A stretch of 64,000 nucleotides of DNA from Patescibacteria group bacterium (GTDB taxonomy: Bacteria; Patescibacteriota; Dojkabacteria; J137), in the NCBI GenBank assembly GCA_016861265.1, contig BOLA01000001.1:267569-331568 (forward strand), read 5' to 3'. The notes beneath the pieces were generated by a model. That model was not told the DNA's origin. It saw only the letters and a program-made list of their open reading frames with translations, and did not search any database. This document shows, piece after piece, positions 7,239 to 46,019 of this stretch (the first letter of the stretch is position 1; the number at the start of each line of letters is the position of its first letter). A program made the position numbers and the translations under genes.

Positions 7239-7241
7239 TAC

Positions 7242-7272: not shown

Positions 7273-7275
7273 CTA

Positions 7276-9506: not shown

Positions 9507-9572
9507 ATTTTTTATACTAACGGCTTATGGATAATATACTAAAACTTATTAATATTCCATATCTTAATTTGT

Positions 9573-9593
9573 CCTGCCCCATCACGGGGCAGG
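9573..9593 (-). terminator. GC-rich hairpin 3 nt after the stop of 9599-10792
   Basis: CCTGCCCC-atcac-GGGGCAGG perfect 8-bp stem. Confidence 0.5.
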
Positions 9594-9598
9594 ATTAT

Positions 9599-10792: not shown

Positions 10793-10845
10793 CTCCGTTC
10801 ACCTCGTTGAGTTTTAAATGAACACGCCTGATTGCGTATATAGGT

Positions 10846-10854
10846 ATTATATCA
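10846..10854 (-). promoter_or_regulatory. extended -10 (TGATATAAT) upstream of 9599-10792
   Basis: Reverse complement of attatatca; sits about 54 nt upstream of the start codon. Confidence 0.4.
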
Positions 10855-11143
10855 TTTTTCGAGTTCTTTCTCTAGATATAGCCTTCACTTGGTGTTTATC
10901 TTACTTGTTCTTATTATAGTTCTACTCATTTACCTAGATGGCGGAATTACCTGGATCACAATTAAAAAAATTACCTAAATGTTATCTATATAAATAATCC
11001 TTTACATTATATTTACAATTTCCTAACGTAAAGTTTTACTTACATCAAATATATTATTTCAGTTAATACTTTATTTAATTAAAAAGAAAGGAGGCTAAAA
11101 GTAAAAATTCGCTTTTAAATTTTTTAATTATAAATATTTTGAT

Positions 11144-12420: not shown

Positions 12421-12769
12421 TTGCTACTTTAGCAGCTTTTTTTTCTTTTCGGAGTTTCTTAGCCATTTTTCCACTCATAACTTTAACTGGCTTTTCTGCT
12501 CTTTGATTTCCTTTATCTTTTTTTGACATAATATTATTATAAAAATTTAATACATTCTAACTAAGGTTATTTAGTATGAATTCATGGGTAAATTTAGATA
12601 ATAATTATTACTATACTAAGTATAAGCTAAAATTTAATTTCTTTAAACTTTTAAACTGGTAAATTAGTTTTATTAATATATAATAATTTGTCTGAAGTAT
12701 GAAAGGACCTGCTCCTTAACAACTTCGATGGAATTAACCGCTATGTTCAAATCTTCAAAGGAGAGTGTC

Positions 12770-15147: not shown

Positions 15148-15573
15148 TCACATTTTCCTTACAAGTGCGAGTTTTTTTTCCAGTTGGATCTTGGGACGAG
15201 TGGGGTTAGGGATCACCAGTTCTACGTCTGGCTTTCCATTAACGATTAACGTGTTAACCCTTACCTCGAACATTGTGTGAAAGCTGTCTACTTCAGGTGC
15301 AAGGTGGATTCGGAAATGAACGATCTCCATGTCCTTGTCCCTCGCCGCTCCTTGACACACATTCAAAAAGCGTCTTGCCTCGCGAATCCGAATTGCGTTG
15401 ATTTCATCCGTCGTACCAAGCAGACTTTCGTACAACGGCATGTATCTTACTTCACATCGCCGCAACTCCAGACCTGCTGTCCCTACGAAAACCTCTACAC
15501 CACGGAGGTACATCTCCACACCTTCTTGAACTTCAAGGGTGTAGTTAGCTCTGGGGATTACAATAGTACTCAT
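15148..15573 (-). CDS. hypothetical protein, paralog 1 (GC-rich island C)
   Basis: 141 aa, about 45% identical to the 15712-16143 product; about 52% GC. Confidence 0.55.
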   Translation of the reverse strand: MSTIVIPRANYTLEVQEGVEMYLRGVEVFVGTAGLELRRCEVRYMPLYESLLGTTDEINAIRIREARRFLNVCQGAARDKDMEIVHFRIHLAPEVDSFHTMFEVRVNTLIVNGKPDVELVIPNPTRPKIQLEKKLALVRKM

Positions 15574-15711: not shown

Positions 15712-16143
15712 TCACAGAATGGAAACGATACTCAGTTTCTTTTCAAGGGCGATCTTTGGACCCGTCGGGTCTGGAAGTACGATTCGCGGCACAGGGTTCA
15801 CCTGCATCAGGTCCACATGAATCTCAAACACTGTGTGCCATGCTTGCTGCTCAGGTGCTAAATGCAGCCGGTATTGCACCAACTGCAAACCCAGCTTAGT
15901 TGCATCTGCACGCCATTGATCCATCGTGATTCCGACTTCCAACACCCGCAAGCTGTTGATCTGACTCATCGCTTGAGCTACATCACCGGTAAAAAGCGGT
16001 TGGTGACGCCTTTGGCAATGATGTAACTCCATATTGGCAGTACCCAGATAAGCCTGGACCTCTCTGAGGTACATTGGAGTACCATCTTGAATCTCCACAC
16101 GGTAGTGGGTAAGGGGAATAACAATTGACGACATCTTTTCCAC
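15712..16143 (-). CDS. hypothetical protein, paralog 2 (GC-rich island C)
   Basis: 143 aa; shares the motifs IVIP..Y.VE.Q.G..MYLR.V, HLAPE, PNPT.PKI.LEKKL with paralog 1. Confidence 0.55.
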   Translation of the reverse strand: MEKMSSIVIPLTHYRVEIQDGTPMYLREVQAYLGTANMELHHCQRRHQPLFTGDVAQAMSQINSLRVLEVGITMDQWRADATKLGLQLVQYRLHLAPEQQAWHTVFEIHVDLMQVNPVPRIVLPDPTGPKIALEKKLSIVSIL

Positions 16144-16863: not shown

Positions 16864-17445
16864 TTAGCTTTCGCTTTCCCAGTAGGTGATCTGAACGAAA
16901 CTTTCCGGATCGTACAGGTGAACTTTCGTTTGATTGTCCACGTATTCGATTTGGGCTAATGCCCAGCCCCACTCGAAACTTTCCAAGTGGAACTCGCCGA
17001 CATATGTGCTCATCACGCCCGCACCTTCGAAGTTGCCCTCGAGCGCCATTACCCACGCCTGAACAGCGTATGGCACTTCCGGTGCCGACGCGCCGCTTGC
17101 CGGGCAATTGAACAGCGCCTGACGCGAGGTCCCGCTTGTCCAAATAACTCCGACCAGCTGGCAGGTTGCCATTTGTTCTGCGCACGCCCCGTCGTACGGG
17201 GTCGTACCATCGATGTCGAATTCGCAGATTGCCCCCGGGAACTGGGGGATGGTACTCGGAACGGGGCACCAGACTTCCCACATATCACCGCGCTCCGCCT
17301 CTTTATAACAACCGTTGACCTCAACGAGGTCCGTGCACCACTGATCACTGCTATCGCAGTAAACAGTAGTATGCGAGGCGAACACGGGCAGCGCCACGGC
17401 TGCAAGAACGATGAACAACACGGATAAAACGATTTTGCGGAACAT
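16864..17445 (-). CDS. secreted Cys-rich protein, hypothetical (GC-rich island D)
   Basis: Signal peptide (..ALPVFA/SH), about 12 Cys, about 58% GC. Confidence 0.55.
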   Translation of the reverse strand: MFRKIVLSVLFIVLAAVALPVFASHTTVYCDSSDQWCTDLVEVNGCYKEAERGDMWEVWCPVPSTIPQFPGAICEFDIDGTTPYDGACAEQMATCQLVGVIWTSGTSRQALFNCPASGASAPEVPYAVQAWVMALEGNFEGAGVMSTYVGEFHLESFEWGWALAQIEYVDNQTKVHLYDPESFVQITYWESES

Positions 17446-30126: not shown

Positions 30127-30600
30127 ATGAAGTTCGAAATGATTCACTACACTGTACAGATCGTCCGTCATGGTGGCGGAACCCAAGAGGTTCTAGCTGA
30201 CGCCGCTCATCTGCCTATCGTCCCGACAAAGGGCGATCTGGTGGAAACGGAAAACGGAGGATTTTTTCGGGTGAAGCACAACATCGGCGGAAATCGCCAG
30301 CTCGTGCTCGATGGCGGCCGATATCAGATCACCGGCTTCTTCTCCAAAGATGGAGCTGGCGTTGTGATTCGCCCCAGCGGTCGTATCGAAGGTGTTAAGG
30401 CGCAACCTACGGGCAAGCTCGTTGGTTTTGATGCCGCCTTGCCTGCGGGGAACCTCGTGAACGTCGACGGCAAGTACCTGATGATCGTCGAACGCATCAT
30501 CTCATCGCAAGGGGTGACCCTTGTGGTCGATGACCTCGAGCGAGACGTCCTCACGGGCGAGCCCGAACTGCAGGGCGTGGTAATGCGTTACACGTTCTAG
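30127..30600 (+). CDS. hypothetical protein (GC-rich island E)
   Basis: 157 aa, about 60% GC, strong SD AAAAAGGAAG. Confidence 0.5.
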   Translation: MKFEMIHYTVQIVRHGGGTQEVLADAAHLPIVPTKGDLVETENGGFFRVKHNIGGNRQLVLDGGRYQITGFFSKDGAGVVIRPSGRIEGVKAQPTGKLVGFDAALPAGNLVNVDGKYLMIVERIISSQGVTLVVDDLERDVLTGEPELQGVVMRYTF

Positions 30601-31600: not shown

Positions 31601-31631
31601 TAAGAATCAAAAAAGGAGCATCTCTGCTCCT
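31601..31631 (-). terminator. rho-independent terminator ending the Nudix / wHTH / NTase / PurA-like operon
   Basis: On the minus strand AAGGAGCA-gaga-TGCTCCTT followed by TTTTTTGATT. Confidence 0.65.
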
Positions 31632-31651
31632 TTAAAATATTTAGATTATAT

Positions 31652-32110
31652 TTATTTACTTGCGTTGTATTTTTTTAATGCAACTTCAAGAATTTGATCG
31701 TGGTCAAAAGCCAGTGGCTTTGGTAATTTATTTAAATCAAACCACTCTGCTTCTGTGGTGTCGTTATCGGCACCATCTTGTGGTTTTAAATCAGATAATT
31801 CATCGGTAACTATTAAATATGCAATAGAAACAACTCTTTTTCTTGGGTCTCTATTAACTTTTCCAAAAGCTTGAATTTGTTCAATGTGCTTTGCAGTTTT
31901 AAAGCCAGTTTCTTCTTCGAGTTCTCTTAATGCTGCATCTTCTAGTTCTTCATGGTCATGTACAAATCCACCGGGAATAGCCCACTGACCTTCGAATGGT
32001 GCATACTTTCTTTTAATTAAAAGCAAATATTTCGCATCCTTTTGTTCAGATATTACAACAATATCTACTGCAACTTTAAGTTCTTGTAAGTCAATAACGA
32101 ATTTTTTCAT
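31652..32110 (-). CDS. NUDIX hydrolase
   Basis: Nudix box GGFVHDHEELEDAALRELEEETG. Confidence 0.85.
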   Translation of the reverse strand: MKKFVIDLQELKVAVDIVVISEQKDAKYLLLIKRKYAPFEGQWAIPGGFVHDHEELEDAALRELEEETGFKTAKHIEQIQAFGKVNRDPRKRVVSIAYLIVTDELSDLKPQDGADNDTTEAEWFDLNKLPKPLAFDHDQILEVALKKYNASK

Positions 32111-32114
32111 ATTA

Positions 32115-33218
32115 TTAATTAAAAGTTAATTTATAACCTTTGTTATATAAAGTTACTATATCTATATTATAACCAGATTGTTTTAGTTTTTTTCTTAATC
32201 TAGACATTCTTTGCTCAATAGCCCATTCAGAATATTTTTCATCAACTTGATCACCCCAAATAATCTTAGCCATCTCTTCCTTAGAAACTTCGGGATTTGC
32301 GTGCATATATTCAATCATTGTTTTTTCACTTTTTGTGAATAAATCAAAATTGATATTAAGTTTATTATCTTGAGTAACAGTTTCTTGTTTAATTTTGTAA
32401 TTAATTAGTTTTTCTTTAATAGCTGGCACTGAAATATCACCATTAACTATAAAGCCTACTTTTTCGTACATTTCTACAATTTCTTGTTCATGTCTGTTCA
32501 ATTTCATTTTATTTATAACTTTTTTGAAGGTACTAATTTCTTCTATAGTCATGTTGTCCAGTAAATACCCTATAAAGTTATCTAGATGTTGGCTTCCTAG
32601 TAAAATGTCTCTATACATTCTTTTAAAAGTACCAAAATGAGTATTTGTTTTTGCAAATATCTCTTCTAGTGTTTTAGTTTCGATTGGCTCAGGTTTTTTT
32701 AGTAATTGTCTGATAATCGAATCTTTATCCCATGTACCTATTTTAAAGTAGATAATTGCATCGAATATACTCGATGACACAGGGAATGCTTTTGTAAATT
32801 TATCTTCAATATTTGGAGTTTCAATTAAGTATATAAACTTAACTCTATTTTTATATTTTTTAATTAATCCATCGATAGATGCTACTAATTTATAGGCGTC
32901 ACCATAAATTTCGATGTCATCAATTAATACTACAATTTCGTACCCTTCTTTTAGGGATTCTAATAAACCAGTACCAAATTTATCCTTTTTTCTAAGTTCA
33001 ATATCTATACAATTTTCAAGTGAGTCGATATCAGTATCCTTTAAAGACTGAGTAGATATGTAAATAAACGCATATTGTGCGTCGTAATTTTGAGGATTTT
33101 GATCTAGGTTGTCTAAAATATCATATAAATTACTAATTCCATCATCTGGAAAGCTTAATATAGTAGGACTAACCCCCATATTTAAGTAATTTACAATCTT
33201 TTTTATATCTTGCTCCAT
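32115..33218 (-). CDS. protein with C-terminal OmpR/CadC-type winged-helix DNA-binding domain and uncharacterised N-terminal domain
   Basis: C-terminus IIWGDQVDEKYSEWAIEQRMSRLRKKLKQSGYNIDIVTLYNKGYKL matches trans_reg_C; no receiver domain or P-loop. Confidence 0.5.
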   Translation of the reverse strand: MEQDIKKIVNYLNMGVSPTILSFPDDGISNLYDILDNLDQNPQNYDAQYAFIYISTQSLKDTDIDSLENCIDIELRKKDKFGTGLLESLKEGYEIVVLIDDIEIYGDAYKLVASIDGLIKKYKNRVKFIYLIETPNIEDKFTKAFPVSSSIFDAIIYFKIGTWDKDSIIRQLLKKPEPIETKTLEEIFAKTNTHFGTFKRMYRDILLGSQHLDNFIGYLLDNMTIEEISTFKKVINKMKLNRHEQEIVEMYEKVGFIVNGDISVPAIKEKLINYKIKQETVTQDNKLNINFDLFTKSEKTMIEYMHANPEVSKEEMAKIIWGDQVDEKYSEWAIEQRMSRLRKKLKQSGYNIDIVTLYNKGYKLTFN

Positions 33219-33273
33219 ACTTATGGATTTTGTATTAAATATATAACAATTATATCACCAAAGGCCACTTAAT

Positions 33274-35187
33274 TCAATTTGTGTTATCCGTTCCTGGTAA
33301 CCCAATATTAACTGCTGGAAGAAATATTTTTTCTAAAAACAGCAGTGTTGCAATACCCCTATAACCTTCATCCCAGAAAGTTCCTGAGTAATCAATTAGA
33401 TTCGAATGCTCAGTCTGGACCTGCTTAGCTCCAGGGTAAAATCGCTTATAACCTTTATGCATTAGTCTACATTGTAATATATCCATTTCTAATTGCCTTA
33501 AAAATTGAGTTCGAATTTGTGGTTCTTCTACTCCAAATCTATTTAAATTAAAGTATTTCGATATTATATTTGAATAAATATCTCTTAACTCCGGGCAACC
33601 ACCTATCCATAAACTATTCATTAATATATGAACTTCTAAAGGTCCAAGAATATTTTCTTCTCTTGGAACATCTCTGAAACCATAAATGCCATTATGTTTA
33701 TATAGCCAGAATTCAAGAATTTTATCAATGCCGTTTATCTCAGGGATAGTTTGCCTTAACAAATCCATTATCTCAGAACGTTTTTCCCATGGAGTTTCTG
33801 GCTTAAAGAAAATTGCCATATCTATATCTGAGTTTGTACCTGCATATCCTTTTAGCCTTGAACCAAAACCAATAACAAATGGATAAACATATTTTGAGAG
33901 CTCATAGCTTTGCTCTATTCTTTTTGCAACAATTGCTAATAATTTAAAGTCCTTATTTATTAATTGTTCACTACTGACTGCTTGGGCTTGGGATAAATCT
34001 GTTAATTGGAGTCCCAAATTTGTAAGATACTCTTTAGGAACTACATTTAATCTGACTAGATAATTTAATCCCGTAATAATTGCATCTCTAACTTCACCTT
34101 GAGCATTTTGAAAACTATTCTCAATGATTACTCTATAGGTTTGAAATAATCCTTTAGCATCTTCTAAATTTAAATATGATATTCTTTCTGCTGCGGTAAA
34201 AATTGATTTAATTGCTACAATTAAAAAAACATTATCAAAACCCTCCATTAGTGCAATCGATTGTAGGTCTAGATTTGTACTTAATAACTGACTAGCAATT
34301 TCATTAACTGCACTATTAATTATTTGCTCTCTTGAAACTTGCTTCTCCCATTTTGCTCTCGCTCTAGAAATCGTTCTAGCGTAATCAGAATTTAAATCAT
34401 ATTTATTTTCTAAGCTTATTAAGTCGAATTCTAAATGCTTAATTATTTCTTCTAAAGTTTTTGGAACTTCTAACTGAGGCAGTTGTGAAGTAATGTTTTC
34501 ACCTAACAGACTTCTAAAAAGCATGCCTATTATTGGTTTACGGCTAGACATTTCAGTTATTAAATCAATATAAACATCGTCTAGTATTCCGCTATAAGAA
34601 GCAGTCAGCATTCCTTCGAGTATTGATTTTATTAATTCTTCTTCTTGCGATATTTCTAATAGTTCAATTAGTAATTCCGGTTTAATTATTGTAAGTTTGA
34701 GAAATATTGGAATTAAATGAGCTATTTTTCTTACTCGCTCAGGAATTCCCAATCCAGGTTCTAGAACATCACCATCTACAAAGTTTGCTCTTATGTCACT
34801 TTCGTGAAGTAATCTTATAAATCCAATTTCGATTAGTTCTTTTAATCTAGTCTGCAAATTAAATAACTCATGTTCGAAAAGAGAATATGGAAAATATAGA
34901 AGTATTCTAGAGTTATTTGTATCGAGTTCTAAAAAATCAGCTAGTTGAGTGTATAATGATAGTAATTCCTCTGATGTTACTTCTTGTTGTAAAGATTTTT
35001 TATGTAGAATACTTCTCAAATTACTTGAAAAACTCTCTCTTTGCAAAGCCTGGTCAACTAAATCTGGATTTATCGTAATATCAGTTGGCAATAAATCATT
35101 AGTTAAATAATTTTGAGTTGTTAAAGGTTCAATTAAATGTACAGAACCTACACCTTCTATATTTTTAATTAGATCTGATTGATTCAT
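33274..35187 (-). CDS. large nucleotidyltransferase (Pol-beta superfamily) with about 430-aa N-terminal helical region
   Basis: GFGSRLKGYAGTNSDIDMAIFF equals the GS-x9-D-x-D NTase signature; stop/start overlaps the upstream PurA-like gene. Confidence 0.6.
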   Translation of the reverse strand: MNQSDLIKNIEGVGSVHLIEPLTTQNYLTNDLLPTDITINPDLVDQALQRESFSSNLRSILHKKSLQQEVTSEELLSLYTQLADFLELDTNNSRILLYFPYSLFEHELFNLQTRLKELIEIGFIRLLHESDIRANFVDGDVLEPGLGIPERVRKIAHLIPIFLKLTIIKPELLIELLEISQEEELIKSILEGMLTASYSGILDDVYIDLITEMSSRKPIIGMLFRSLLGENITSQLPQLEVPKTLEEIIKHLEFDLISLENKYDLNSDYARTISRARAKWEKQVSREQIINSAVNEIASQLLSTNLDLQSIALMEGFDNVFLIVAIKSIFTAAERISYLNLEDAKGLFQTYRVIIENSFQNAQGEVRDAIITGLNYLVRLNVVPKEYLTNLGLQLTDLSQAQAVSSEQLINKDFKLLAIVAKRIEQSYELSKYVYPFVIGFGSRLKGYAGTNSDIDMAIFFKPETPWEKRSEIMDLLRQTIPEINGIDKILEFWLYKHNGIYGFRDVPREENILGPLEVHILMNSLWIGGCPELRDIYSNIISKYFNLNRFGVEEPQIRTQFLRQLEMDILQCRLMHKGYKRFYPGAKQVQTEHSNLIDYSGTFWDEGYRGIATLLFLEKIFLPAVNIGLPGTDNTN

Positions 35188-36734
35188 TAAGCTTCTATTT
35201 CTTTATCTGAATTATCGGTTTTCCAACCGCCTGTTCTTGAAAGTAAAGCTTCATGGCCCTTTCGAATCCTTCTATCAGAAGCTTTTGGGCCGTGAGAAGT
35301 AGCAACAACATTTACTTTTAAGTTCTCCTCTACATATTCTAAAAATACTTGCTCCAAACTTTTATCTTCGGTAGCAACCAAAGTTCTTAATACTGGTTTA
35401 CATTGTTTAAGTAATTCAGTTAACCTAACTTGATGGTTATAGTGTTTTTCATCTTGAGTATTAGCAACAACTTTTATTGCTTTTATTACGCCATCTTCAA
35501 TAACAAAATAATCTTCAAGATCATCTGCAATCCCGTCGAATATATAAGCTTCACAAACCTGCCACTCACTGAATTGATTTAAAACATCTAAATAACTTAT
35601 TATTAATCCGTCGTATGTATTTGCTCCACCGCTAATCGCTAAGGAATACTGCATTGCAACCAAATCGTATTGACCATTCTTAAAATCACCTAGCCAATCA
35701 TTACCTGTATTATTATGAGTTTCGTGTATGGCACTAGACATTTCAGGACTAAAGCTAACAAGAGGTCCTGCACCATGCCTAGTCATGTAGCATCTTGAAA
35801 CTCCTAATCTAATAACCTTTCCTGAGTAATTTTTTGTTTCCAGAGTTTCCAGTAAATCTGAAGACGTTGGATCAATTTGTGTAGTGTGCGGTATAAATCC
35901 ATACCAAGGATGTAATAAAGAACCGTGTGAAGGTTCGGTTACAATTGCTCCTTCTTGATTTAGAATTCCAGTAAATTGTTCGTCATTAGAAATTTGAACA
36001 AGTGCTGCTAAGCATTCAAAAGATTCAACAGTTGCTACTACTAAACTTGTACTATTTAAAATTTTCATTTCTGAATAAACTTCGTCAGGCAATTCTTCAA
36101 TTCCCATATCACTTATAATTTGGATTGCTTGCTGTAGTTTATGCTGTCTAATTGCCTCTACTTTTCGCATTAAATAATCTGTTCCAAGGCTAAATTCAGC
36201 AGCAGTTATTCCTAAATCAGGAGAAGTCCTTGAATCTTTTATAGCATCACCAACTCCTTTACCTACTGTTCCTTTTTTTTGATCTCTTAATCTTTCTTTG
36301 AATCTACTAAATGCTCCATGAAAGGGAGTTACGGTTAAACAGTTTCCGTCAATTGAGATTAAATCCAATGGATTTGCAATACCTTTTGCTTCAAGTTCTA
36401 AAGCTTCCGTAAATAAATCCACAGGGTTAATAACCATGTGAGTTAAATGTGTTTTTGCACCTTCAAAAGTCCCACAACCAAAATGAGAAAACATTTGTTC
36501 GGTTCCATCTTCGTTAATAATGTGATGACCAGCCTGAGAACCACCTGTTCTTAAAACAGTGTGGGCATTTAAAAGTTGAGTTAACCATTGTACCGTTGCA
36601 CCTTTAGTTTCCTCACCAATACCTAGACCATTAATTACTACAATCTCCGAATTATTTTTTACTCCATCCATATTATTAAATTTAAAGTTATTCCTTTTCG
36701 TCCTTTTGGACTCATCAGTTTTGATACACATCAA
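35187..36734 (-). CDS. divergent adenylosuccinate synthetase (PurA/PurZ)-family protein; true start probably 36671
   Basis: PurA motifs present but altered: GEETKGA (for GDEGKGK), GGSQAGHH (GG.NAGH), GTVGKGVGDA (GTT..GIGP.Y); the Met at 36671 gives the canonical short N-terminus. Confidence 0.65.
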   Translation of the reverse strand: MMCIKTDESKRTKRNNFKFNNMDGVKNNSEIVVINGLGIGEETKGATVQWLTQLLNAHTVLRTGGSQAGHHIINEDGTEQMFSHFGCGTFEGAKTHLTHMVINPVDLFTEALELEAKGIANPLDLISIDGNCLTVTPFHGAFSRFKERLRDQKKGTVGKGVGDAIKDSRTSPDLGITAAEFSLGTDYLMRKVEAIRQHKLQQAIQIISDMGIEELPDEVYSEMKILNSTSLVVATVESFECLAALVQISNDEQFTGILNQEGAIVTEPSHGSLLHPWYGFIPHTTQIDPTSSDLLETLETKNYSGKVIRLGVSRCYMTRHGAGPLVSFSPEMSSAIHETHNNTGNDWLGDFKNGQYDLVAMQYSLAISGGANTYDGLIISYLDVLNQFSEWQVCEAYIFDGIADDLEDYFVIEDGVIKAIKVVANTQDEKHYNHQVRLTELLKQCKPVLRTLVATEDKSLEQVFLEYVEENLKVNVVATSHGPKASDRRIRKGHEALLSRTGGWKTDNSDKEIEA

Positions 36735-36744
36735 AATAAGGATC

Positions 36745-36775
36745 GAGCAGGTGAGATTTTCATCATCACCTGCTC
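36745..36775 (-). terminator. rho-independent terminator after the vWA/kinase island
   Basis: 10-bp perfect stem GAGCAGGTGA..TCACCTGCTC, then on the minus strand GATCCTTATTTTGA. Confidence 0.6.
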
Positions 36776-36793
36776 AAACATGTGAATAGCTAC

Positions 36794-37957
36794 TTAGAAC
36801 TTCGACCAGTCGAAGGGCTTACGTGGCGGGCGCGGGGTCGAAACATCTTCTTCCGCCTCCCCACTTTCGAAGACAGCCTGACCTTCCGCCTTGGGGTGAC
36901 CAATCGGCCAGGCATGGCGATAATTCTCGAACTCATCCCCGGGCTTCGGCATGACACCGAAGTTGGGCAAACGAGTCTGAGCGCCGGCATCGATCTTGGC
37001 GACTTCCAGCGCGTACCAGATTGCGTTGGCATCGCGCTGCGAAATCGGCTGGTTCGTACCGCGCGTTGTCTCGATCAGGAAATCAACCAAACGCTGCTGC
37101 GTCACGCCGACGTTCTCGGTGATGTAGATGATCGCAACCTGAGTTTCAGCGATCAGGTCAGCATTGGGGACAAGGACAACGCGTCCTTTACCCAAAGTGC
37201 TTTCCCAGAAGCTGGTCACGTGGTTGCGTGTTGCTGCTTGACCACCACGCGCCACCTGAAGGTAGAACGTGTGCCACGCCTTATTCAGGCTGCGGGCGAG
37301 ATCACTGGTCTTGGTCGTGGATTGCAGACCAATCCCCAAGTGCAGCATTGCTGCTTCCTTGGTGATGCTGCCGCGACCTTCTTGGTCACCGACAATCATC
37401 ATGTAGCCTTTGAGGCCGTACATGGTATAGATGTCGGTCTGGACAGCGCGATCAACGTAGGCGAGCGCCATGTCGTAGTCTTCAACCGGATCGCCGCCGC
37501 TTTCCGCTGCGAGCAGAAGACGAAGCTGTTCAGCAATCCGATTGTCGGACTCGAACTGAGTCTGTTGATAGACCGGTTTGCTGTCGTCAACGTCCTGAAC
37601 CACTGCGGATGAGAGCTGCATGTTGTAGCGCTCCCGGGCGAAACCCAGCATGTCGTAGATCGTGCCAAGCTCAAAGAAAGCCTTGCCCACGTTCTCGCCC
37701 ATGCTGGCAGTACCGTCGAATACCGTGAGCAACGGCATCGCCGGGCCATTCTTGAGGATGGTCTTGTCGCCTTCACGCACCAAAGCGTTACGCGACTTAC
37801 GGGTCTTGCCATTGATGTCCACCAACGGATCGACCTTACCGGTTGCGCGGAAAACACGATCACCGACCTCGTGTACCGTCTCACGACGGGCTTTCATGGT
37901 GGCGACCGTTTCTTCGAACTTGGCACTGCTGAAGGTTGCGACGTCTGTTGTACGCAT
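36794..37957 (-). CDS. vWA-like (MIDAS D-x-T-x-S) domain protein (GC-rich island F)
   Basis: LLTVFDGTASMGE; about 58% GC. Confidence 0.45.
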   Translation of the reverse strand: MRTTDVATFSSAKFEETVATMKARRETVHEVGDRVFRATGKVDPLVDINGKTRKSRNALVREGDKTILKNGPAMPLLTVFDGTASMGENVGKAFFELGTIYDMLGFARERYNMQLSSAVVQDVDDSKPVYQQTQFESDNRIAEQLRLLLAAESGGDPVEDYDMALAYVDRAVQTDIYTMYGLKGYMMIVGDQEGRGSITKEAAMLHLGIGLQSTTKTSDLARSLNKAWHTFYLQVARGGQAATRNHVTSFWESTLGKGRVVLVPNADLIAETQVAIIYITENVGVTQQRLVDFLIETTRGTNQPISQRDANAIWYALEVAKIDAGAQTRLPNFGVMPKPGDEFENYRHAWPIGHPKAEGQAVFESGEAEEDVSTPRPPRKPFDWSKF

Positions 37958-38020
37958 GATTGTTGTCTCTGCTTTCTTGGATTTGTTTTAGATTCGGATT
38001 GAGTTGGGCGAATGCCTGAG

Positions 38021-38938
38021 TTACAGGCTGTAGGTCACGAACTGGTGAAAATCACGCTTAAAACGATCAGTACCTTCGATGGGCTTTTTGGGCCAGAAGA
38101 TATCTGCCTGTGCGTAGATGATGCTGTGCTCAGCACCAGCGCCGTCGGTGCTTCCGTCCATAATGCGACGGAGCGAGTCAATGTACTGCGTGTGGTGTTC
38201 AGCCGAAAGGAGCGCTGCATCGTGAGGGGGATTGTTGTCCCCGCCGCCCACAGCATTCCACAGCATTTTCGCTGCGGCCGAAACTTCCGCCATACATTCT
38301 GATTTGCTGGCGTCCTCGTTCGCTTCTGAGAAGTCGAGGACAAAGACACCGTGAACATCCTTTTCGATCAGGACGTTCGTGGCGTCGACCATGCCAACAG
38401 TGAAGCCCAGCGAGTGGACAAAGTCCAAAAGCTTGAGCAACTTGCCCAGCACCCACGTGCCGGTCTTGAGATCGATGCGCTGACCGTCAAGCACTCGCGC
38501 CAGCGGGAAAAGCTGTTTGTATGTGTTGATGCTCGGGTGGTAACCCAAGACCATCACAAAACGCCCATCTTCACCCACGAACGAATCGAGTAATGTCGGG
38601 AAAAGCGCTCCGTAGTTCAGCGGATTCTCGCCCCGGCCGACCGCTTCCGCATCCAAGTCCGTCGCGATCTGCTGCAAAGTGCGCAGAATACGCGATTCGG
38701 TTTCGAGGATGTGGTTGAGGTCGACGGTTGCAGCGATCTTCATCAGCCCCATTTGTCCCGAAGGGAGTTTGGCAACATAGAGCTTCCAGCTTTCGGTGGT
38801 GACCAATGCGGTGCCGCCGATGCTGAAAATTTCGTAAGTGCCATTCGCGCCGTCGATTTCGGTCATGCTCGTAAGAGCCGACCCCGAAGTTGAGTCATCA
38901 CCAACTGGTGCAGTCCCGAGAAATTCCTTGTCGTCCAT
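38021..38938 (-). CDS. protein-kinase-like fold protein with atypical catalytic loop (GC-rich island F)
   Basis: GLMKIAAT (VAIK-like), VGMVDATNVLI (catalytic-loop-like, D-x2-N not D-x4-N), VLDFSEA (DFG-like). Confidence 0.4.
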   Translation of the reverse strand: MDDKEFLGTAPVGDDSTSGSALTSMTEIDGANGTYEIFSIGGTALVTTESWKLYVAKLPSGQMGLMKIAATVDLNHILETESRILRTLQQIATDLDAEAVGRGENPLNYGALFPTLLDSFVGEDGRFVMVLGYHPSINTYKQLFPLARVLDGQRIDLKTGTWVLGKLLKLLDFVHSLGFTVGMVDATNVLIEKDVHGVFVLDFSEANEDASKSECMAEVSAAAKMLWNAVGGGDNNPPHDAALLSAEHHTQYIDSLRRIMDGSTDGAGAEHSIIYAQADIFWPKKPIEGTDRFKRDFHQFVTYSL

Positions 38939-39239
38939 TGTGTACCTTCCTTATATTGTCGAATGTGTATGATTACCAGGATATTCCCTAGTAACAGCCA
39001 CACCCTAAAGACATAATCTACAGAGTGTGACTGTTACGGTAACCTTACTTTAGCTATTCACTTGTTAATGTACTTTCCGAGATTTAAAATCATCGGACTC
39101 TCAAAAGAGATTGATTTGTACCTTTAGCAAACTTCTTTCGAAGATTTATTAATTAAGTACATTGAGATTGTATTAGCGAATGGATATATAAGCCTGATAG
39201 CAAAAGTCAGGCAGCAGTAGATATATGCCATATATAATT

Positions 39240-39430
39240 AAATTTCTGACAATTGCTGACAAATCAAAAAGAAAATAGAAACTGACACTTTTTATTTTGT
39301 TTACTGGTAAGTGTTTTAAAGAAAGTGGGCACAAACTGACATAGAAAATGTAGAAAATTTGAAGAAAATTGACAAAATTTAGGAAAACCCACTAAAAATA
39401 GCGCTCTTTAGTAGTTTTTTGATTTTTATA
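39240..39430 (+). repeat. Intergenic cluster of short direct repeats (CTGACA x4; GAAAAT/ACAAAAT x5 at about 10-bp phase) ending in a palindromic hairpin plus T-tract
   Basis: tagaaaatg/tagaaaattt/gaagaaaatt/gacaaaattt at 39342-39380; ACTAAAAATAGCGCTCTTTAGT then AGTTTTTTGATTTTTAT at 39391-39428. Confidence 0.35.
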
Positions 39431-39511: not shown

Positions 39512-40786
39512 ATGAATCATCAAAACACAAGCACAATCTGGGACGTAATAGTAATTGGCGCAGGTCCAGCCGGCCTTATGGCTGCAGGTCGAGCTGCTGA
39601 GCGTGGTAAAAGCGTACTACTATTAGAAAAGAATCCATACATAGGTAAAAAACTTTTAATTACAGGTGGTGGCGGATGCAACGTTACAAACAATAAACCA
39701 GAAGTACAACAATTAGTTAATAGCTACAAAGGTTCCCCTAAAGCTCTCTACTCTGTTTTTAGTCAATTCGATGTTACAAATACTTTAGAGTTTTTCCATA
39801 ACAAAGGAATGCCTACTAAATTAGAAGCAGAAGGCAGAATATTCCCTGAAAGTAACAAGGCTCAATCTGTTTGGAATGTTTTAAATGAATACATTACAAC
39901 AAACAAAGTTACATTAAAAACAAATGCTGTAGTTACAGGAATAACTTTAAACGAAGATAAAACTTTTAAAATTAAACTAGTTAACGATGCTGTTGTTGGC
40001 AAAGCATGCATTGTTGCAACTGGTGGAACTAGTCACCCAGAAACAGGTTCCACTGGTGATGGTTTTAAATGGTTAAAACAATTAGGGCATACAATTAATC
40101 CTAATTCATTTTCTTTGGTACCAATTGCATTAAAAGAAACCTGGGTTAAAGATGTTAGCGGTATAGCATTAGAAGATGCAGTTATTCGTGTTTATTTAGA
40201 TGGTAAAAGACAAGCACATAAACAAGGTAAAATCTTGTTTACTCATTTTGGATTAAGTGGACCAGCTGTTTTAAATTTGAGCAGTCAAATTGGTGAACTA
40301 CTACAGTATGGCAATGTAAGTTTAGAAATTGATTTACTACCGCAATACGATAATGGAATGTTAAAAACAGAACTATTCAATGTACTTACTACAGATATAA
40401 ATAAGAAGATTAAAAATACATTGAATAATTTAATTGCTAGTGGATTAGTTTTAACTGTATTAAAGTTAGCAAACGTGGATACAGACAAAGCCAACAATAG
40501 TATTACAAAAGAAGAACGTTTACGTTTAGCACAAATATTAAAAGCAATTCCAGCTAATGTTAAACATTTACTTGGTGCCGATAAAGCAATTGTAAGTTCC
40601 GGTGGAGTTGATATTAACGAAGTTGATTTTAAAACAATGCAATCTAGATTAATACCAAACCTATATATTATTGGGGATTTATTAGATATTGATAGACCAA
40701 GTGGTGGTTATAGTTTGCAGTTGTGCTGGAGTATGGGGATGGTGAGTGGGGGCCTATTTAAAAGTTGCAAGCTGAGGTATTTTTAG
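39512..40786 (+). CDS. HI0933/BaiN-family FAD-dependent flavoprotein
   Basis: VIVIGAGPAGLMAAGRAAERGKSVLLLEKN, GGGGCNVTN, typical about 420-aa length. Confidence 0.85.
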   Translation: MNHQNTSTIWDVIVIGAGPAGLMAAGRAAERGKSVLLLEKNPYIGKKLLITGGGGCNVTNNKPEVQQLVNSYKGSPKALYSVFSQFDVTNTLEFFHNKGMPTKLEAEGRIFPESNKAQSVWNVLNEYITTNKVTLKTNAVVTGITLNEDKTFKIKLVNDAVVGKACIVATGGTSHPETGSTGDGFKWLKQLGHTINPNSFSLVPIALKETWVKDVSGIALEDAVIRVYLDGKRQAHKQGKILFTHFGLSGPAVLNLSSQIGELLQYGNVSLEIDLLPQYDNGMLKTELFNVLTTDINKKIKNTLNNLIASGLVLTVLKLANVDTDKANNSITKEERLRLAQILKAIPANVKHLLGADKAIVSSGGVDINEVDFKTMQSRLIPNLYIIGDLLDIDRPSGGYSLQLCWSMGMVSGGLFKSCKLRYF

Positions 40787-42157
40787 AAAAATAATACCTC
40801 TGGCAATCATAATATTGTCTTTTATAACATAACATTCCACATAATGATCTCCAATGTATGCAATTTGTTCTTTACGTATTTTGGTGCCATCATCTTCCCA
40901 AATTTGACCCCTTAACTTCTTAGCATATTTACCTGTATTTCTAATTTTCCAGAAAATTTGAACTGGATCATATGTACTTATGACTTCATTATCTTCTATA
41001 TAATATTCTAAGTTTGCTGATCTTCTAAAAAACGTGACTTCAGATAAAAGAGTAGGGTTTGGATTCCCATTTTGAGTCACTATTGCATTGAGTTTTATTT
41101 TTAGTAAATTAGGACTTACACTAAATCCTTTTTCTTCTATAAACTGCTCAACATCCGATGGAAAGTTCTTCACAGCCCAAGAGATGAAGGAATGGAAAGC
41201 CATCGAAATCGGATAACTTTTAATTGATTCATCGTCTTCAATTACCTTAAATTGATCACCAAATATTTGATTCCATTTCTTGGAACTTTCAACTACATCC
41301 TGCAAATCTAGGGCCTCTTTTGCGATATTAAGTGATTCATCTACTATTCTCATAAACTTCTTAAATTCGTCTAAAGACATTGAGATTTTTAAATATTCGC
41401 CCTCTAAACCTGGATCTTTAAGTTCTGGGATTGATGACAATGTCTCGAAGTTACTATATTTATTAGATATAGATTCTAGAACACTTGTAAATAATTCAGC
41501 ATAAGTATCTTTAGCTTGGAAATTATCCCCTACTAAAAACTCAATCCAGAATCCTTTCGGTTGCGGTTTTTTTACTTTTGAATTTAGTTTCCACCAATAC
41601 TTAAAAATCTTCACCAATGGGACGAACATTTCTTTACTTTTTTCCAATGAATTTAAGTTAGAAGTGTATTCAGTATGTGCCTTTGGATGACTATAGACCC
41701 ATTTACTTAGTTCCTTATCTGGAATTAATAGCTTACTGTCTCCATCAGTTTCAACTACTGTAGGTAGGACATCTAGAGTCATCTCAACATCTGGGTGTTC
41801 GGGCAATGCTTGCTTTACTTTTACAGATTTACGGGAATACTCAAGATTATCTGCATCCTCATAATGTTCATTCAAGCTTTTCTTCAACTTTGCTAACACT
41901 TTAGCAGGTGTATTTTCTTCTTTGGATGGATCAAAATCAGTAAGAATCGCGATATCAATATCTTTAATATCCCCTACTGCGGTATGTCTCTTATAAGAAC
42001 CATATAGAAATGATCCAATAACATTTTCTGCAATAGTAGCATCATTCTCAAGATGTTCTCGAATAGTTGAATGTGCCTCTTTTGCAAAATTTTTTTGTTC
42101 TGGATCTGGTTCAATATTTGTTAAAAAATCATCAAAGCAAGTATTAAGAGTTGCCAT
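40754..42157 (-). CDS. CD-NTase-like (SMODS) cyclic oligonucleotide synthase with about 130-aa C-terminal extension
   Basis: GSFLYGSYKRHTAVGDIKDIDIAIL (GS..R.TA...D.D), third Asp in MTLDVLPTV, KGFWIEFLV helix. Confidence 0.55.
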   Translation of the reverse strand: MATLNTCFDDFLTNIEPDPEQKNFAKEAHSTIREHLENDATIAENVIGSFLYGSYKRHTAVGDIKDIDIAILTDFDPSKEENTPAKVLAKLKKSLNEHYEDADNLEYSRKSVKVKQALPEHPDVEMTLDVLPTVVETDGDSKLLIPDKELSKWVYSHPKAHTEYTSNLNSLEKSKEMFVPLVKIFKYWWKLNSKVKKPQPKGFWIEFLVGDNFQAKDTYAELFTSVLESISNKYSNFETLSSIPELKDPGLEGEYLKISMSLDEFKKFMRIVDESLNIAKEALDLQDVVESSKKWNQIFGDQFKVIEDDESIKSYPISMAFHSFISWAVKNFPSDVEQFIEEKGFSVSPNLLKIKLNAIVTQNGNPNPTLLSEVTFFRRSANLEYYIEDNEVISTYDPVQIFWKIRNTGKYAKKLRGQIWEDDGTKIRKEQIAYIGDHYVECYVIKDNIMIARGIIFLKIPQLATFK

Positions 42158-42158
42158 A

Positions 42159-43529
42159 TTAAAAAGTACTATTTGTAATTATTGTTGCACGCTGATATAT
42201 TTCTCTATCCGCACCCAAAAAATATACATGGAGCTTTGCATTAAGAGAATCTAGTTTGTGTCCCGCCATTAGCGAGATAGGTTTAGGAATAGCCAAAAAT
42301 AAATGTATATCTTTGATTCCCCAACTTTGAATCTCCATAATAGAATTAGACAATTCTTTTGCTACAATTGAAGCATGCGCGGAGTTTGAAACTCTTCCAT
42401 CCACAATGTATTTATGTACTATATATTTTATTGTAGGAAAGTTTCTGTCATTTATATTTTTTAAAACAATATCTTTTAAGTCTTTTCGACCAACAGCATC
42501 AAAGATTAGTACAGCTTCTGTAGAACTATTATCTATTATTAAAGGTTCTTGTGATTTTATTCTTGATTCTACAGCTGGAGTATCCTCTTCAACACTACTC
42601 CACAATTGTTTTTTGTAGATTACCTTGAATTGGATTCTATTTTTTCTAAAAGCTAGGCCTAGTTGAAACGCAAGGGAAATCTCAATATCTGTATAGATTA
42701 TTATATTTTCGTACATGGATGTAGACTTTATAATTTCTACCAAAGCTTTTATAGATTCGATAATTTTCCTATTCCTATCTTCTAACTGTTCTTTGCTTAC
42801 GTAAAAATCCTCGAAGTACACTGTTAAATCAACTACCTGATCAAAAGTTGAATTTTTCTGTGTGGTTACTCCTAAGTAAAGTGTTCTCGGTTTTACTGAA
42901 GTAACTTTTTTAAATATATTTTGGGTTTGATTAAGTTCTAGTAGTATTTCCTTTATTTTTTCTTTTTCATTTAGAATTTCTTTAGAAGTTTTCAAGATTG
43001 TCTTCCTAGTAAGCACATTCAAGTCAGAAATTTTAAGATCAAAAAATTTGTCAGTAGGAAGATTCTTTGAATAATATTTATACACTAGATCGGGATAATT
43101 ATCTAAAGAACTCATTAAATCACTCCAAAAAACGGGCGTTACCATACTCTGTCCCTGAGCTAATCTATTCTTACTTAAAGCCAAGCACATTGAAGTTATT
43201 TTCGAATCACTCGCAGCACTAGTTACATAATAAAAATTGTTTAACTTAATACCTGCCTTCTTAAGCTTTTCTAAACTTTCTGTTATATCAGCTTCCATTA
43301 CCGATTGAATCTTATTAGTTGGAACATCTAAATGATTTTTGCATTGAATGCCCTCAATTTCGTTAGTTCCAAAATTAAACCCCAAAATATCTAATCCATA
43401 TTGAGCTTGTCCTTTTCTACCAAATCTTTGTAGATTGGGATTTATGAACTTCCGTGAAAAGATATCGCAGACTAAATCTTCGAAAAAGCTATCATCTTTA
43501 AGTTTTGGTAAATCAAAGATTCCACTCAT
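42159..43529 (-). CDS. Cap4-like effector: N-terminal Mrr-like PD-(D/E)xK nuclease plus large C-terminal (SAVED-like) domain
   Basis: GLDILGFNFGTNEIEGIQCKNH resembles the Mrr_cat motif; about 330-aa C-terminal domain; directly upstream of the CD-NTase with 1-nt spacing. Confidence 0.45.
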   Translation of the reverse strand: MSGIFDLPKLKDDSFFEDLVCDIFSRKFINPNLQRFGRKGQAQYGLDILGFNFGTNEIEGIQCKNHLDVPTNKIQSVMEADITESLEKLKKAGIKLNNFYYVTSAASDSKITSMCLALSKNRLAQGQSMVTPVFWSDLMSSLDNYPDLVYKYYSKNLPTDKFFDLKISDLNVLTRKTILKTSKEILNEKEKIKEILLELNQTQNIFKKVTSVKPRTLYLGVTTQKNSTFDQVVDLTVYFEDFYVSKEQLEDRNRKIIESIKALVEIIKSTSMYENIIIYTDIEISLAFQLGLAFRKNRIQFKVIYKKQLWSSVEEDTPAVESRIKSQEPLIIDNSSTEAVLIFDAVGRKDLKDIVLKNINDRNFPTIKYIVHKYIVDGRVSNSAHASIVAKELSNSIMEIQSWGIKDIHLFLAIPKPISLMAGHKLDSLNAKLHVYFLGADREIYQRATIITNSTF

Positions 43530-45284: not shown

Positions 45285-46019
45285 TTACCGATCGGGCTTG
45301 GGGTGCCACAGAGGGCGCACCACGCCGCGGTAAACCGCGAGCCCGAAAATTGCCACTGCAATGACTAACCAAATGGTCGCCCACTGGTTGCCATTCAAGA
45401 ACGGGTACAGCTGAGAAAACTGGACCGCATCGTTATGGTGGTCCTGTCGCGACAGCTGCTCCAGAGCGCGTAATCCGTTAATGGCGTCCAGCGCAACGTA
45501 CGCCGATAACACGTTGATTAAGCCTACCCCTATGTGCCACGGCAAGTACTTGCTCACCAGAAAGACCACTACTGACAGTACGACCGCCACGATCACCGTG
45601 AGCTGAGTGCCGGTTGCTTGGTCGGGTTGCGCGTAAGTCAAGGCGAACAACCCCATAACAATCCCCACCCCGAACGCCACAACGGCGCCCCACTGGTAAC
45701 GATTGTTGAAATAGAACACAACCGACCCAATCAGAGCCGAACCCAGATAGCCTGCAGGCAGAATTAACGTCCACCATCCACCGGCGGACTGAACGTATCC
45801 ACCGCCGTCGGAACCTACGACTAGCGCCATCACACGGCCACCAGTAATCCAGGTGGCAAATGCGTGGCCAAACTCATGAACCAACACCTGCACAAAGTGC
45901 AGACTCCGATTAACCACGAACATGTTACTGTCCGTGACAATCAGGTGCAGAACAACCGCCACAAGGACGGTCACCGACGCCATGATAACAGCGTAGGATT
46001 TATTCGTCGGGTAACGCAT
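45285..46019 (-). CDS. M50B-like membrane metallopeptidase (HExxH) (GC-rich island G)
   Basis: HEFGH within a TM protein; about 56% GC; extended -10 TGATATAAT at 46060-46068 and SD AAAGGAG. Confidence 0.55.
   Translation of the reverse strand: MRYPTNKSYAVIMASVTVLVAVVLHLIVTDSNMFVVNRSLHFVQVLVHEFGHAFATWITGGRVMALVVGSDGGGYVQSAGGWWTLILPAGYLGSALIGSVVFYFNNRYQWGAVVAFGVGIVMGLFALTYAQPDQATGTQLTVIVAVVLSVVVFLVSKYLPWHIGVGLINVLSAYVALDAINGLRALEQLSRQDHHNDAVQFSQLYPFLNGNQWATIWLVIAVAIFGLAVYRGVVRPLWHPKPDR

Follow-up and report, generated by a model that had tools for sequence, protein, structure and literature searches.

What does a divergent enzyme of the adenylosuccinate synthetase (PurA) family do in a Patescibacteria genome, and with which of its neighbours does it act? 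The question is raised by a PurA-like gene in a 64,000-nucleotide (nt) stretch of contig BOLA01000001.1 from the Dojkabacteria (hereafter the window). A preliminary description of the window placed this gene in an operon of four minus-strand genes, followed by genes for a large nucleotidyltransferase (NT), a winged helix-turn-helix (wHTH) protein and a Nudix hydrolase, and supposed that their products make, transfer and degrade a nucleotide derivative. Our analysis indicates that the flagged genes are real, yet form the tail of a larger undescribed module, whose core consists of a kinase-like protein, a vWA protein with a metal-ion-dependent adhesion site (MIDAS) and a divergent PurA-family ligase, usually with an NrtR-type Nudix gene beside it. 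We hold this architecture and family assignment, namely a Nudix-linked kinase-like/vWA/PurA-like module that is extended by NT and processed by a hammerhead ribozyme in Patescibacteria, with high confidence; the module taken together with the mechanism proposed below is the explanation that we favour by a modest degree. The genes and signals of the locus that the argument needs first are the following (coordinates are those of the window; aa, amino acids; GC, G+C content; GC3, GC at third codon positions).

39234-39262, minus strand: promoter-like site TTGTCA-17-AATTAT, about 295 nt upstream of p305, a consensus match alone
38021-38938, minus strand: p305, kinase-like protein, GC 0.55, GC3 0.67
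36794-37957, minus strand: p387, vWA protein (integrin beta-I-like), MIDAS D81-x-T83-x-S85, GC 0.57, GC3 0.68
35187-36671, minus strand: PurA-like coding sequence, 494 aa, ATG start at 36671, identical to database protein P0001
33274-35187, minus strand: NT637, 637 aa, HEAT-like repeats and a C-terminal MntA-like Pol-beta nucleotidyltransferase
33249-33277, minus strand: promoter-like site TTGAAT-17-TATAAT with TG, 10/12 matches, the best of the region, between NT637 and wHTH367
32115-33218, minus strand: wHTH367, 367 aa, Trans_reg_C (OmpR/PhoB-type) wHTH at residues 296-364 (Pfam), N-terminal ~290 aa unassigned
31652-32110, minus strand: Nudix152, 152 aa, Pfam NUDIX at 3e-26
31608-31633, minus strand: terminator-like hairpin and T-run, closing the unit 3' of Nudix152

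Open reading frame (ORF) coordinates and Pfam matches bore out the four consecutive minus-strand ORFs with the domains first given to them. Their junctions are tight or overlapping, with a 1-nt overlap between the PurA-like stop and the NT637 start, a 55-nt gap between NT637 and wHTH367 and a 4-nt gap between wHTH367 and Nudix152, and the shared closing terminator, placed earlier at 31601-31631, was found as a terminator-like hairpin with a T-run at 31633-31608. A TTG start at 36734, which would give a 515-aa PurA-like ORF (35187-36734), was rejected as a mechanical artefact; position 36734 falls within a hammerhead ribozyme. The upstream boundary had been taken for the terminator of a separate GC-rich island encoding the vWA and kinase-like proteins. 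It is in fact a hairpin, 2 nt and then the hammerhead, and our scan recognised no T-run there.

The kinase-like and vWA genes are not a separate island but the most conserved partners of the PurA-like gene. From the gene contexts of homologues at 33-64% identity and tblastn checks, the order in Patescibacteria is constant: a protein of ~280-320 aa, a protein of ~370-406 aa and the PurA-like protein, then a member of the NT637 family on either strand. The gene of the PurA-like clade was found always alongside a vWA gene, and synteny of the three core genes extends from Patescibacteria to other bacteria and to large phages. When pairwise identities within each of four families (kinase-like, vWA, PurA-like and NT) were compared over 11 lineages, the matrices correlated with Spearman coefficients of 0.74-0.85, which indicates that the four genes were inherited together. 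The protein p387 has the Rossmann-like fold and MIDAS of a vWA domain, and its family profile matched nothing in the PDB. The kinase-like protein p305 matches a PHROG 'kinase' family (9e-8), and its profile weakly matches the CK2 catalytic loop in the PDB. Across more than 130 homologues of p305, N188, H196 and D202 are conserved (Asn188-like and Asp202-like positions) but a beta3 Lys and an HRD Asp are not; its phage, actinobacterial and other non-Patescibacteria counterparts give Pkinase matches or are annotated as Ser/Thr kinases.

Searches by tblastn of phage genomes revealed homologues of p387 and of the PurA-like protein together in three phage groups, namely Mycobacterium cluster C (Bixzunavirus), Vibrio phages of ~190 kb and Rhizobium phages of ~200 kb. 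Tonenili has the order Ser/Thr kinase (gp106), hypothetical (vWA) protein (gp105) and PurA-like protein (gp104). The vWA gene lies directly ahead of the PurA-like gene in Vibrio phage Va1 and in Rhizobium phage RHph_Y65, and the latter has NadM-Nudix and phosphoribosyltransferase genes a few genes upstream. A metagenome scan with the vWA profile gave 80 loci of 34-72% GC, in ~45 of which the PurA-like gene is directly beside the vWA gene, often with a kinase-like gene before it; many of the others were too short to tell. One gut clade has the order NadE, PncA, NrtR, a 300-aa protein, vWA and PurA-like, and another metagenomic clade has NrtR, Pkinase, vWA and PurA-like. The vWA gene is also carried on plasmids in 21 records, including Rhodococcus (R. 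jostii RHA1), Variovorax, Rhizobium and Methylorubrum. The plasmid neighbourhood was inspected in two of the 21, those from Tsukamurella and Agrobacterium vitis: the Tsukamurella tyrosinosolvens plasmid encodes a kinase-like protein, vWA, 'adenylosuccinate synthetase' and NUDIX, and the A. vitis plasmid has NUDIX divergent from kinase-like, vWA and 'adenylosuccinate synthetase'. Both of these Nudix proteins match the full-length NrtR profile.

One Patescibacteria locus, L012, holds two modules side by side (5-5282 and 5705-11216). The first is phage-like, with a Pkinase, a vWA-like protein of 515 aa (35% identity to its Tonenili counterpart) and a PurA paralogue of 448 aa that is nearer to canonical PurA, and the second is the Patescibacteria version with NT. 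Accessory proteins of ~340-383 aa with a common N-terminal domain, helix-hairpin-helix-like by eye, occur in several Patescibacteria loci (L009, 8592-9626; L026, 11306-12722; L017, 9156-10554; L012, 3737-5282; L018, 4143-5258; L014, 6544-7653), where a protein of ~107 aa is likewise recurrent; none of these accessory genes has a Pfam match or occurs in the window.

How far the operon extends at its other end was clarified by a sister strain (L108), whose wHTH and Nudix proteins are 94% and 89% identical, respectively, to those of the window. The two strains share the upstream leader around the promoter-like site at 39234-39262, and downstream the wHTH-Nudix genes and the methyltransferase-like genes. 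The slot between, corresponding to 33274-39000 of the window, is filled in L108 by another cassette (1148-5883) of GC 0.48-0.59, which has no PurA-like or NT gene and encodes a PP2C, a kinase-like protein of 664 aa and two proteins of 309 and 280 aa, the latter with a MIDAS-like DGSYS; the kinase-like and vWA-like assignments in L108 were made by motif reading, and Pfam matches none of the proteins so assigned. The cassette ends in a terminator-like hairpin, and promoter-like sequence ahead of the wHTH gene follows. Because a promoter-like site precedes wHTH367 in the window and L108 keeps wHTH-Nudix behind a different cassette, wHTH367-Nudix152 is probably a separate transcription unit, so that the single four-gene operon stands as regards its ORFs and junctions and probably not as a unit of transcription. 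At 90% identity, wHTH367 belongs to a cluster of 8 members from several assemblies and the module proteins are singletons, as would be expected if wHTH-Nudix were the stable flank next to a variable slot.

A self-contained four-gene defence operon that makes, transfers and degrades a nucleotide signal, to which the vWA and kinase-like genes would be unrelated, could call on the tight junctions and the single terminator, on the true coupling of PurA-like and NT, on the recurrence of Nudix genes near PurA-like genes, and on the CBASS pair next door and the cassette exchange at the locus. We regard it as unlikely, and the comparative data have already largely refuted it. No homologue of wHTH367 was found in any other module-bearing locus, wHTH-Nudix persists in L108 where PurA-like and NT are replaced, and the most widely conserved partners are vWA and kinase-like, whose genes are joined to the PurA-like gene via a ribozyme rather than parted from it by a terminator. 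PADLOC-DB 2.0 returned nothing for the PurA-like, vWA, kinase-like and wHTH proteins and gave marginal candidate-family matches for the NTase core (E 1e-3) and the Nudix protein (PDC-S07, 8e-9), and thus no meaningful match for any of the four. The four-gene set is not a conserved unit, since wHTH367 was found in this lineage alone and NT occurs solely in Patescibacteria. Full-text literature searches found no description of the kinase-like/vWA/PurA-like gene set, in agreement with the earlier remark that no described system matches these genes.

The PurA-like protein matches the Pfam family Adenylsucc_synt over its full length (5e-40), and reaches 106 bits against NF002223 (cut-off 402) and 89.5 bits against TIGR00184 (cut-off 395.6), about one quarter of the cut-offs of the PurA equivalog models. 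Its P-loop reads GEETKGA in place of GDEGKGK, and the non-canonical P-loop residues reported before are thereby substantiated. We aligned 116 homologues and numbered them on Escherichia coli PurA, using a reference sequence that was consistent with the PDB alignment. The residues of E. coli PurA that bind guanosine triphosphate (GTP), the phosphate of inosine monophosphate (IMP) and aspartate behave differently in this clade. G12, K16, H41, D333 and G416-P417, at positions for GTP and phosphotransfer, are invariant or nearly so, and the SxGP motif and the GxTxxGxG substrate loop are retained. Because Lys16, His41, Asp333, SxGP and GxTxxGxG are kept, GTP-driven phosphoryl-activation chemistry is likely, and GTP-driven activation of a 6-oxopurine is probably retained in the clade. 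Elsewhere the replacements are nearly uniform: D13E in 88 of the 116 homologues, N38Q in 110, Q224H in 108 (a Patescibacteria trait) and V273H in 107; T129 has become V, I or C, P135 has become E or D, K331 is aromatic, and K18 and R143 are lost across the clade. The contacts to the IMP 5'-phosphate, R143' and T129, are thus not kept. The aspartate loop TTGRRRR is replaced by an aromatic-x-G-x-hydrophobic-R loop, in which R303 is G in 114 of 116, T301 is W in 99 (also Y) and R305 is F in 89 (also V). The phage and plasmid proteins carry the same derived signature (Q38, E135, H273, the altered loop, and neither K18 nor R143), and they retain D333 except in Va1 (N).

Since the aspartate loop and two IMP-phosphate contacts are replaced, the PurA-like protein is neither a housekeeping PurA nor a PurZ. 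With E. coli PurA (PDB 1ADE/1KJX) it shares the fold family, the full-length Pfam match and the kept GTP and catalytic residues, and it differs in the Glu at Asp13 in most Patescibacteria copies and in the aspartate loop. These shared features, the annotation of homologues as adenylosuccinate synthase and the housekeeping genes such as secA that flank the module in Woesebacteria could be read as signs of a lineage-specific housekeeping enzyme that converts IMP to AMP, with coincidental neighbours. Such a role is improbable. The scores of 106 and 89 bits lie far from the cut-offs of 402 and 396, the replacements at 143, 301, 303 and 305 affect nearly all homologues and recur in phage and plasmid copies, a vWA gene is always alongside, one genome also carries, next to a further kinase-vWA pair, a paralogue that is closer to PurA, and the sister strain has no such gene at this locus. 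The distribution within Patescibacteria is also patchy, because an exhaustive search with the partner protein p305 gave just 237 clusters at 50% identity, 38 of them close. The earlier expectation that this is not a housekeeping purA is consistent with these results.

A role as PurZ, in 2-aminoadenine (Z-base) synthesis, deserves mention on account of the best PHROG match, phrog_1211 ('2-aminooxy adenylosuccinate synthetase', 2e-51), a label that the phage homologues bear as well; like the PurZ of Z-genome phages, the clade includes a phage-carried PurA paralogue for, by our reading, a different purine nucleotide. This assignment is extremely improbable, as the protein scores 21.4 bits against the NCBIfam PurZ model NF038379 (cut-off 300), PurZ still uses aspartate whereas the aspartate site of the clade is gone, and the genes lie on bacterial chromosomes and plasmids beside vWA and kinase genes. 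None of the companions DatZ, MazZ and DpoZ was found in any locus whose neighbours were examined.

The coupling of the PurA-like protein with NT, which the preliminary description also proposed, is well founded within Patescibacteria. The two genes, translationally coupled in the window, are adjacent in every Patescibacteria locus with sufficient flank, and four proteins (P0134, P0135, P0137 and P0141) have PurA-like fused N-terminally to NT, so that a functional link is indicated by the fusions. Homologues of NT637 were found exclusively in Patescibacteria, and tblastn against phage genomes gave none. The Pol-beta core had been named as the recognisable feature of the 637-aa protein, and Pfam agrees, matching Polbeta solely at residues 437-480 (33.2 bits, gathering score 26.9). 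Pfam scans of each family member gave nothing besides this core, and the only PDB match of the family profile was the MntA/HI0073 core. Among 69 sequences, G442, S443, D454 and D456 do not vary and at least 90% retain E492; G442-S443, D454-x-D456 and E492 make up a catalytic core of Pol-beta/MntA type. A structural model (predicted local distance difference test score 89.6, predicted template modelling score 0.91) has a small N-terminal beta element, helical repeats of ~400 residues and the C-terminal NTase. A further invariant motif, R133-F136-D138-G139...K154-H157, is N-terminal and lies within a lower-confidence loop of the model. NT637 resembles MntA of type VII toxin-antitoxin systems in its GS...DxD core, its best sequence and fold matches being MntA and HI0073, and differs from it in having ~430 extra residues that form a beta-hairpin and HEAT-like repeats with their own invariant motifs, in having no HEPN partner and in being fused or coupled to a PurA-like enzyme.

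Across phyla a Nudix gene is a recurrent companion of the PurA-like gene, as had been suspected, and its type points to ADP-ribose and nicotinamide adenine dinucleotide (NAD). The best NCBIfam matches of Nudix152 are NtrR (7e-22) and NadM-Nudix, of the ADP-ribose type, and the Nudix box GX5EX7REUXEEXGU can be read intact from its sequence. A full-length NrtR adjoins the module in at least eight lineages, among them L006, L009, L046, L053, L075, Tsukamurella and Agrobacterium, and a Nudix-only protein does so in three more, the window included. NAD-salvage genes are further neighbours (NadE and PncA in L053; PncA, NadD-like and PncB in L009; NadM-Nudix and the phosphoribosyltransferase in the Rhizobium phage). 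NrtR is an ADP-ribose-responsive repressor of NAD metabolism, and nrtX-nrtY have been listed as NrtR-regulated genes without known function (Rodionov et al. 2008, PMC2330246). The module is like the NrtR regulon in having an NrtR-type Nudix gene directly beside it in many phyla and NAD-salvage genes in several loci, and unlike it in that no operator was identified for the module and the window Nudix has no winged helix. When the sequence upstream of the module was searched for a palindromic NrtR operator, no shared DNA operator was found; an RNA hairpin emerged instead. The Nudix protein had been cast as the degrader of the product, and its NrtR/ADP-ribose type and the mostly full NrtR proteins elsewhere point rather to a sensor, a regulator or an ADP-ribose hydrolase.

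The RNA elements of the locus, all on the minus strand, are listed here in transcript order.

39053-39073, minus strand: box GTACATTAACAAGTGAATAGC in the 5' untranslated region (UTR), with near-identical boxes upstream of orthologous kinase-like genes
38991-39037, minus strand: 47-nt RNA hairpin GTAACAGTCACAC...GTGTGGCTGTTAC in the 5'UTR of p305
36745-36775, minus strand: hairpin GAGCAGGTGA / TCACCTGCTC, 10-bp stem, -19.8 kcal/mol, at the 3' end of the vWA mRNA segment
36692-36742, minus strand: type III hammerhead ribozyme between the vWA and PurA-like genes

The hammerhead begins (36742) 2 nt past the hairpin. It reads UCCUUA up to the cleavage site, then the stem I hairpin of 7 bp (UUUUGAU-GUGU-AUCAAAA), the core CUGAUGA, stem II (GUCC-AAAA-GGAC), GAA and AAGGA (36692), so that GAAA follows stem II and the open stem III is formed by UCCUU and AAGGA. 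Cleavage is predicted after A36737, at the U16.1-H17 site. The minimum free energy fold is a three-way junction of the type III structure, and this is the sole hammerhead core match in the 64 kb, where 0 are expected. When 13 distinct copies were aligned, pairing held in 96.2% of cells, and compensatory changes were seen in 9 of 16 pairs, spread over all three helices; none of 500 shuffles reached the observed covariation, and controls with slid positions dropped to 26-52% paired. Eight lineages (the window, L006, L007, L012, L018, L028, L029 and L030) have a hammerhead immediately 5' of the PurA-like start. Another lies upstream of the kinase-like gene in L012 (5328-5415), L018 (5664-5751), L030 (559-646) and L035 (360-447), and others surround an extra GC-rich gene pair in L026 (10725-10812 and 12882-12969) and L017 (10599-10686). 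These further copies place ribozymes on both sides of the GC-rich gene pairs in several lineages, and the excised RNAs would bear 5'-OH and 2',3'-cyclic phosphate ends.

Six of the eight lineages have the 3' strand of stem III (GAAAGGG/AGGA) 3-7 nt before the ATG, where it would double as the ribosome-binding site; cleavage would release the 4-5-bp stem and so free this site. The simplest reading is that a single precursor RNA spans the vWA and PurA-like genes and is cut between them, and the hairpin at 36745-36775 may protect the 3' end. Like the type III hammerheads of bacterial and phage operons, these have a complete core and three covarying helices and are intergenic within a polycistronic unit. 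They differ from known examples in being minimal, with a very short stem III, 4-nt loops and scores under the Rfam threshold, and in standing immediately 5' of a start codon with stem III as ribosome-binding site in most relatives. No report of a type III hammerhead in Patescibacteria was found in the literature searched. The 39053-39073 box is near-identical upstream of the orthologous gene in L004/5, L006, L007, L017 and L035, and box and 47-nt hairpin together, ~55-135 nt upstream of the kinase-like gene, recur in L004/5, L006, L007, L017, L026 and L035. The hairpin has 22 predicted pairs (RNAalifold; -28.5 kcal/mol), 8 with compensatory changes, and three conserved G-U pairs that are possible on the sense strand only; it may be a protein-binding or RNase III site. 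At the gathering score, Rfam gave no family in the window and none for the 5'UTR motif.

The window has ~36% GC and a GC3 near 0.2 in most genes, and the GC3 of 0.67-0.68 in p305 and p387 contrasts with 0.18-0.20 in PurA-like and NT. These two GC-rich genes together have zero AGA, AGG, ATA and CTA and one TTA, codons that are major in their neighbours. A recent foreign island was considered and ruled out, as the pair is syntenic, co-diverging and GC-enriched in all lineages: GC3 of the kinase-like and vWA orthologues was above that of PurA-like and NT in 11 of 11, by ~+0.05 to ~+0.6. Recent transfer fails to explain the GC-richness because the pair co-diverges with its AT-rich neighbours; selection on how stable the excised RNA is, translation with a changed tRNA supply, or a bias in repair or recombination may be the source.

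Whether the module serves in conflict was weighed against the surroundings of the locus. Next to the module is a CBASS-like (cyclic oligonucleotide-based antiphage signalling system) pair on the minus strand (40754-42157 and 42159-43529), consisting of a SMODS and AGS_C cyclase (PADLOC cyclase, 5e-68) and a SAVED protein. The pair adjoins the module in the window strain and in L001 and is absent there in L002, which has an identical PurA-like gene. The locus resembles a variable, defence-island-like hotspot. A defence role, as in the earlier reading, is favoured by the CBASS pair and the cassette exchange and not by PADLOC, in which the module has no system, nor by the housekeeping and NAD-salvage neighbours elsewhere. 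Conflict systems that pair Nudix-HTH ADP-ribose sensors with vWA peptide-binding proteins to counter viral ADP-ribosylation have been predicted (Iyer et al. 2022, PMC9503650), with no PurA-like enzyme in any of them. Our module resembles these Nudix-HTH/WYL systems and the TerY-P triads in combining an ADP-ribose-sensing regulator with vWA and a kinase-type component; its enzyme is a PurA-family ligase and not an ADP-ribosylglycohydrolase or phosphatase, and the vWA, PP2C and kinase combination of the TerY-P triad is incomplete, with no PP2C at the window locus.

An ADP-ribose-triggered conflict system, serving as defence in bacteria and counter-defence in phages, could accordingly be envisaged, in which NrtR/Nudix would sense ADP-ribose from NADases or ADP-ribosyltransferases, vWA and the kinase would recognise a protein cue, and PurA-like (with NT) would deplete or convert purine nucleotides or make a toxic or signalling nucleotide. 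The exchange with a PP2C, kinase-like and vWA cassette at the same locus, the adjacent CBASS that varies between strains, the presence of the module in lytic phages and on megaplasmids and the prediction of vWA-containing anti-ADP-ribosylation systems are in keeping with it. The lack of a matching PADLOC model and of an obvious toxic effector domain, the location among NAD-salvage or housekeeping genes in several lineages and the apparent vertical co-inheritance in Patescibacteria are less so, and we consider this role doubtful, while giving it a real chance. It overlaps our favoured explanation, the nucleotide-ligase module under NAD-linked control, and differs from it in biological role alone. 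That role may be NAD/adenylate homeostasis or host-virus conflict, both of which fit the restoring or rewiring of adenine or NAD nucleotides.

The favoured explanation can be put as a sequence of steps. A single precursor RNA would start upstream of the kinase-like gene, and the hammerhead would cut it into a GC-rich kinase-like/vWA mRNA ending in the hairpin and a PurA-like/NT mRNA with a 5'-OH; cleavage would free the ribosome-binding site where stem III overlaps it, as in most relatives. The PurA-like enzyme would then transfer phosphate from GTP to the 6-oxo group of a purine nucleotide, the 5'-phosphate of which is probably esterified or otherwise unlike that of free IMP, and a nucleophile other than aspartate would displace the phosphate and yield an adenine-type or N6-substituted nucleotide. 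The vWA/kinase-like pair may act as a peptide-binding regulator or scaffold of the enzyme, NT may supply or consume its nucleotide in Patescibacteria, and the Nudix/NrtR partner may tie expression or flux to ADP-ribose/NAD status. The chemical part of this scheme (GTP activation, a non-aspartate nucleophile, a vWA/kinase regulator and NT as supplier or consumer), read from sequence, is tentative. A bolder form is more speculative again: a new GTP-dependent ligase that would join ammonia, a nicotinamide-type ring nitrogen or a protein amine presented by vWA to an activated purine or ADP-ribose-derived nucleotide in an ADP-ribose/NAD-linked reconstitution or signalling pathway common to phages, Patescibacteria and free-living bacteria, gated in Patescibacteria by the hammerhead and by the foreign (GC-rich, AGA/ATA/TTA-free) codons of the regulatory genes.

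Several points weigh against this explanation. It is the residue replacements that suggest a second substrate other than aspartate and a nucleotide 5'-phosphate that is bound differently. We infer the co-transcription across the hammerhead, and against Hammerhead_3 (RF00008) the window copy scores 21.6 bits and that of L012 28.6 bits, all copies being below the gathering score of 48.5; two of the 13 copies have C for U at core position 4. The distance from the stem III 3' strand to the ATG is 20 nt in the window, so that the overlap with the ribosome-binding site suits the relatives better. With no conserved catalytic Lys or Asp, p305 may be an atypical kinase or a pseudokinase. Nudix152 covers positions 5-140 of the 221-position NrtR profile, and the winged-helix domain that together with Nudix defines the NrtR regulator is absent; the protein thus has no DNA-binding domain, and its gene lies downstream of a probable separate promoter. 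NrtR/Nudix is absent within the sequenced flanks of L007, L008, L012 and L018. Finally, nrtX and nrtY may or may not be module genes.

If the explanation is true, the module represents a branch of purine/NAD nucleotide biochemistry that has gone unrecognised and is controlled by ADP-ribose, and may supply a function for nrtX and nrtY of the NAD-regulon reconstructions. It is also relevant to the way in which phages and reduced symbionts withstand NAD/adenylate depletion, and its presence in cultivable Tsukamurella, Agrobacterium vitis and well-studied mycobacteriophages makes it directly testable. The hammerhead would give a well-defined natural example of an operon split by a ribozyme precisely at a start codon. 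The kinase-like/vWA pair keeps its GC-rich codon usage in AT-rich genomes over long vertical descent, which current models of base composition explain poorly.

Seven more genes of the window are GC-rich (9599-10792, 12728-13642, 15148-15573, 15712-16143, 16864-17445, 30127-30600 and 45285-46019), and with the module pair they form a class of GC 0.47-0.57 and GC3 0.46-0.68; most have no Pfam match and they are mostly without homologues. The GC-rich genes examined have one third-position composition in common. Comparison ruled out that they are one family or paralogues, and a hammerhead link to them was ruled out as well, there being one hammerhead in the 64 kb. The adjacent minus-strand genes at 15148-15573 and 15712-16143 are paralogues of each other (41% identical, 141 and 143 aa, no family match). 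The plus-strand ORF at 30127-30600 encodes 157 aa without a family match and is convergent to a methyltransferase-like gene; L108 has a counterpart in the same place that is 28% identical and also GC-rich. The plus-strand gene at 13736-15130 encodes a 464-aa protein with an RNase T-type 3'-5' exonuclease and a GIY-YIG nuclease domain, in a Cho/UvrC-like arrangement.

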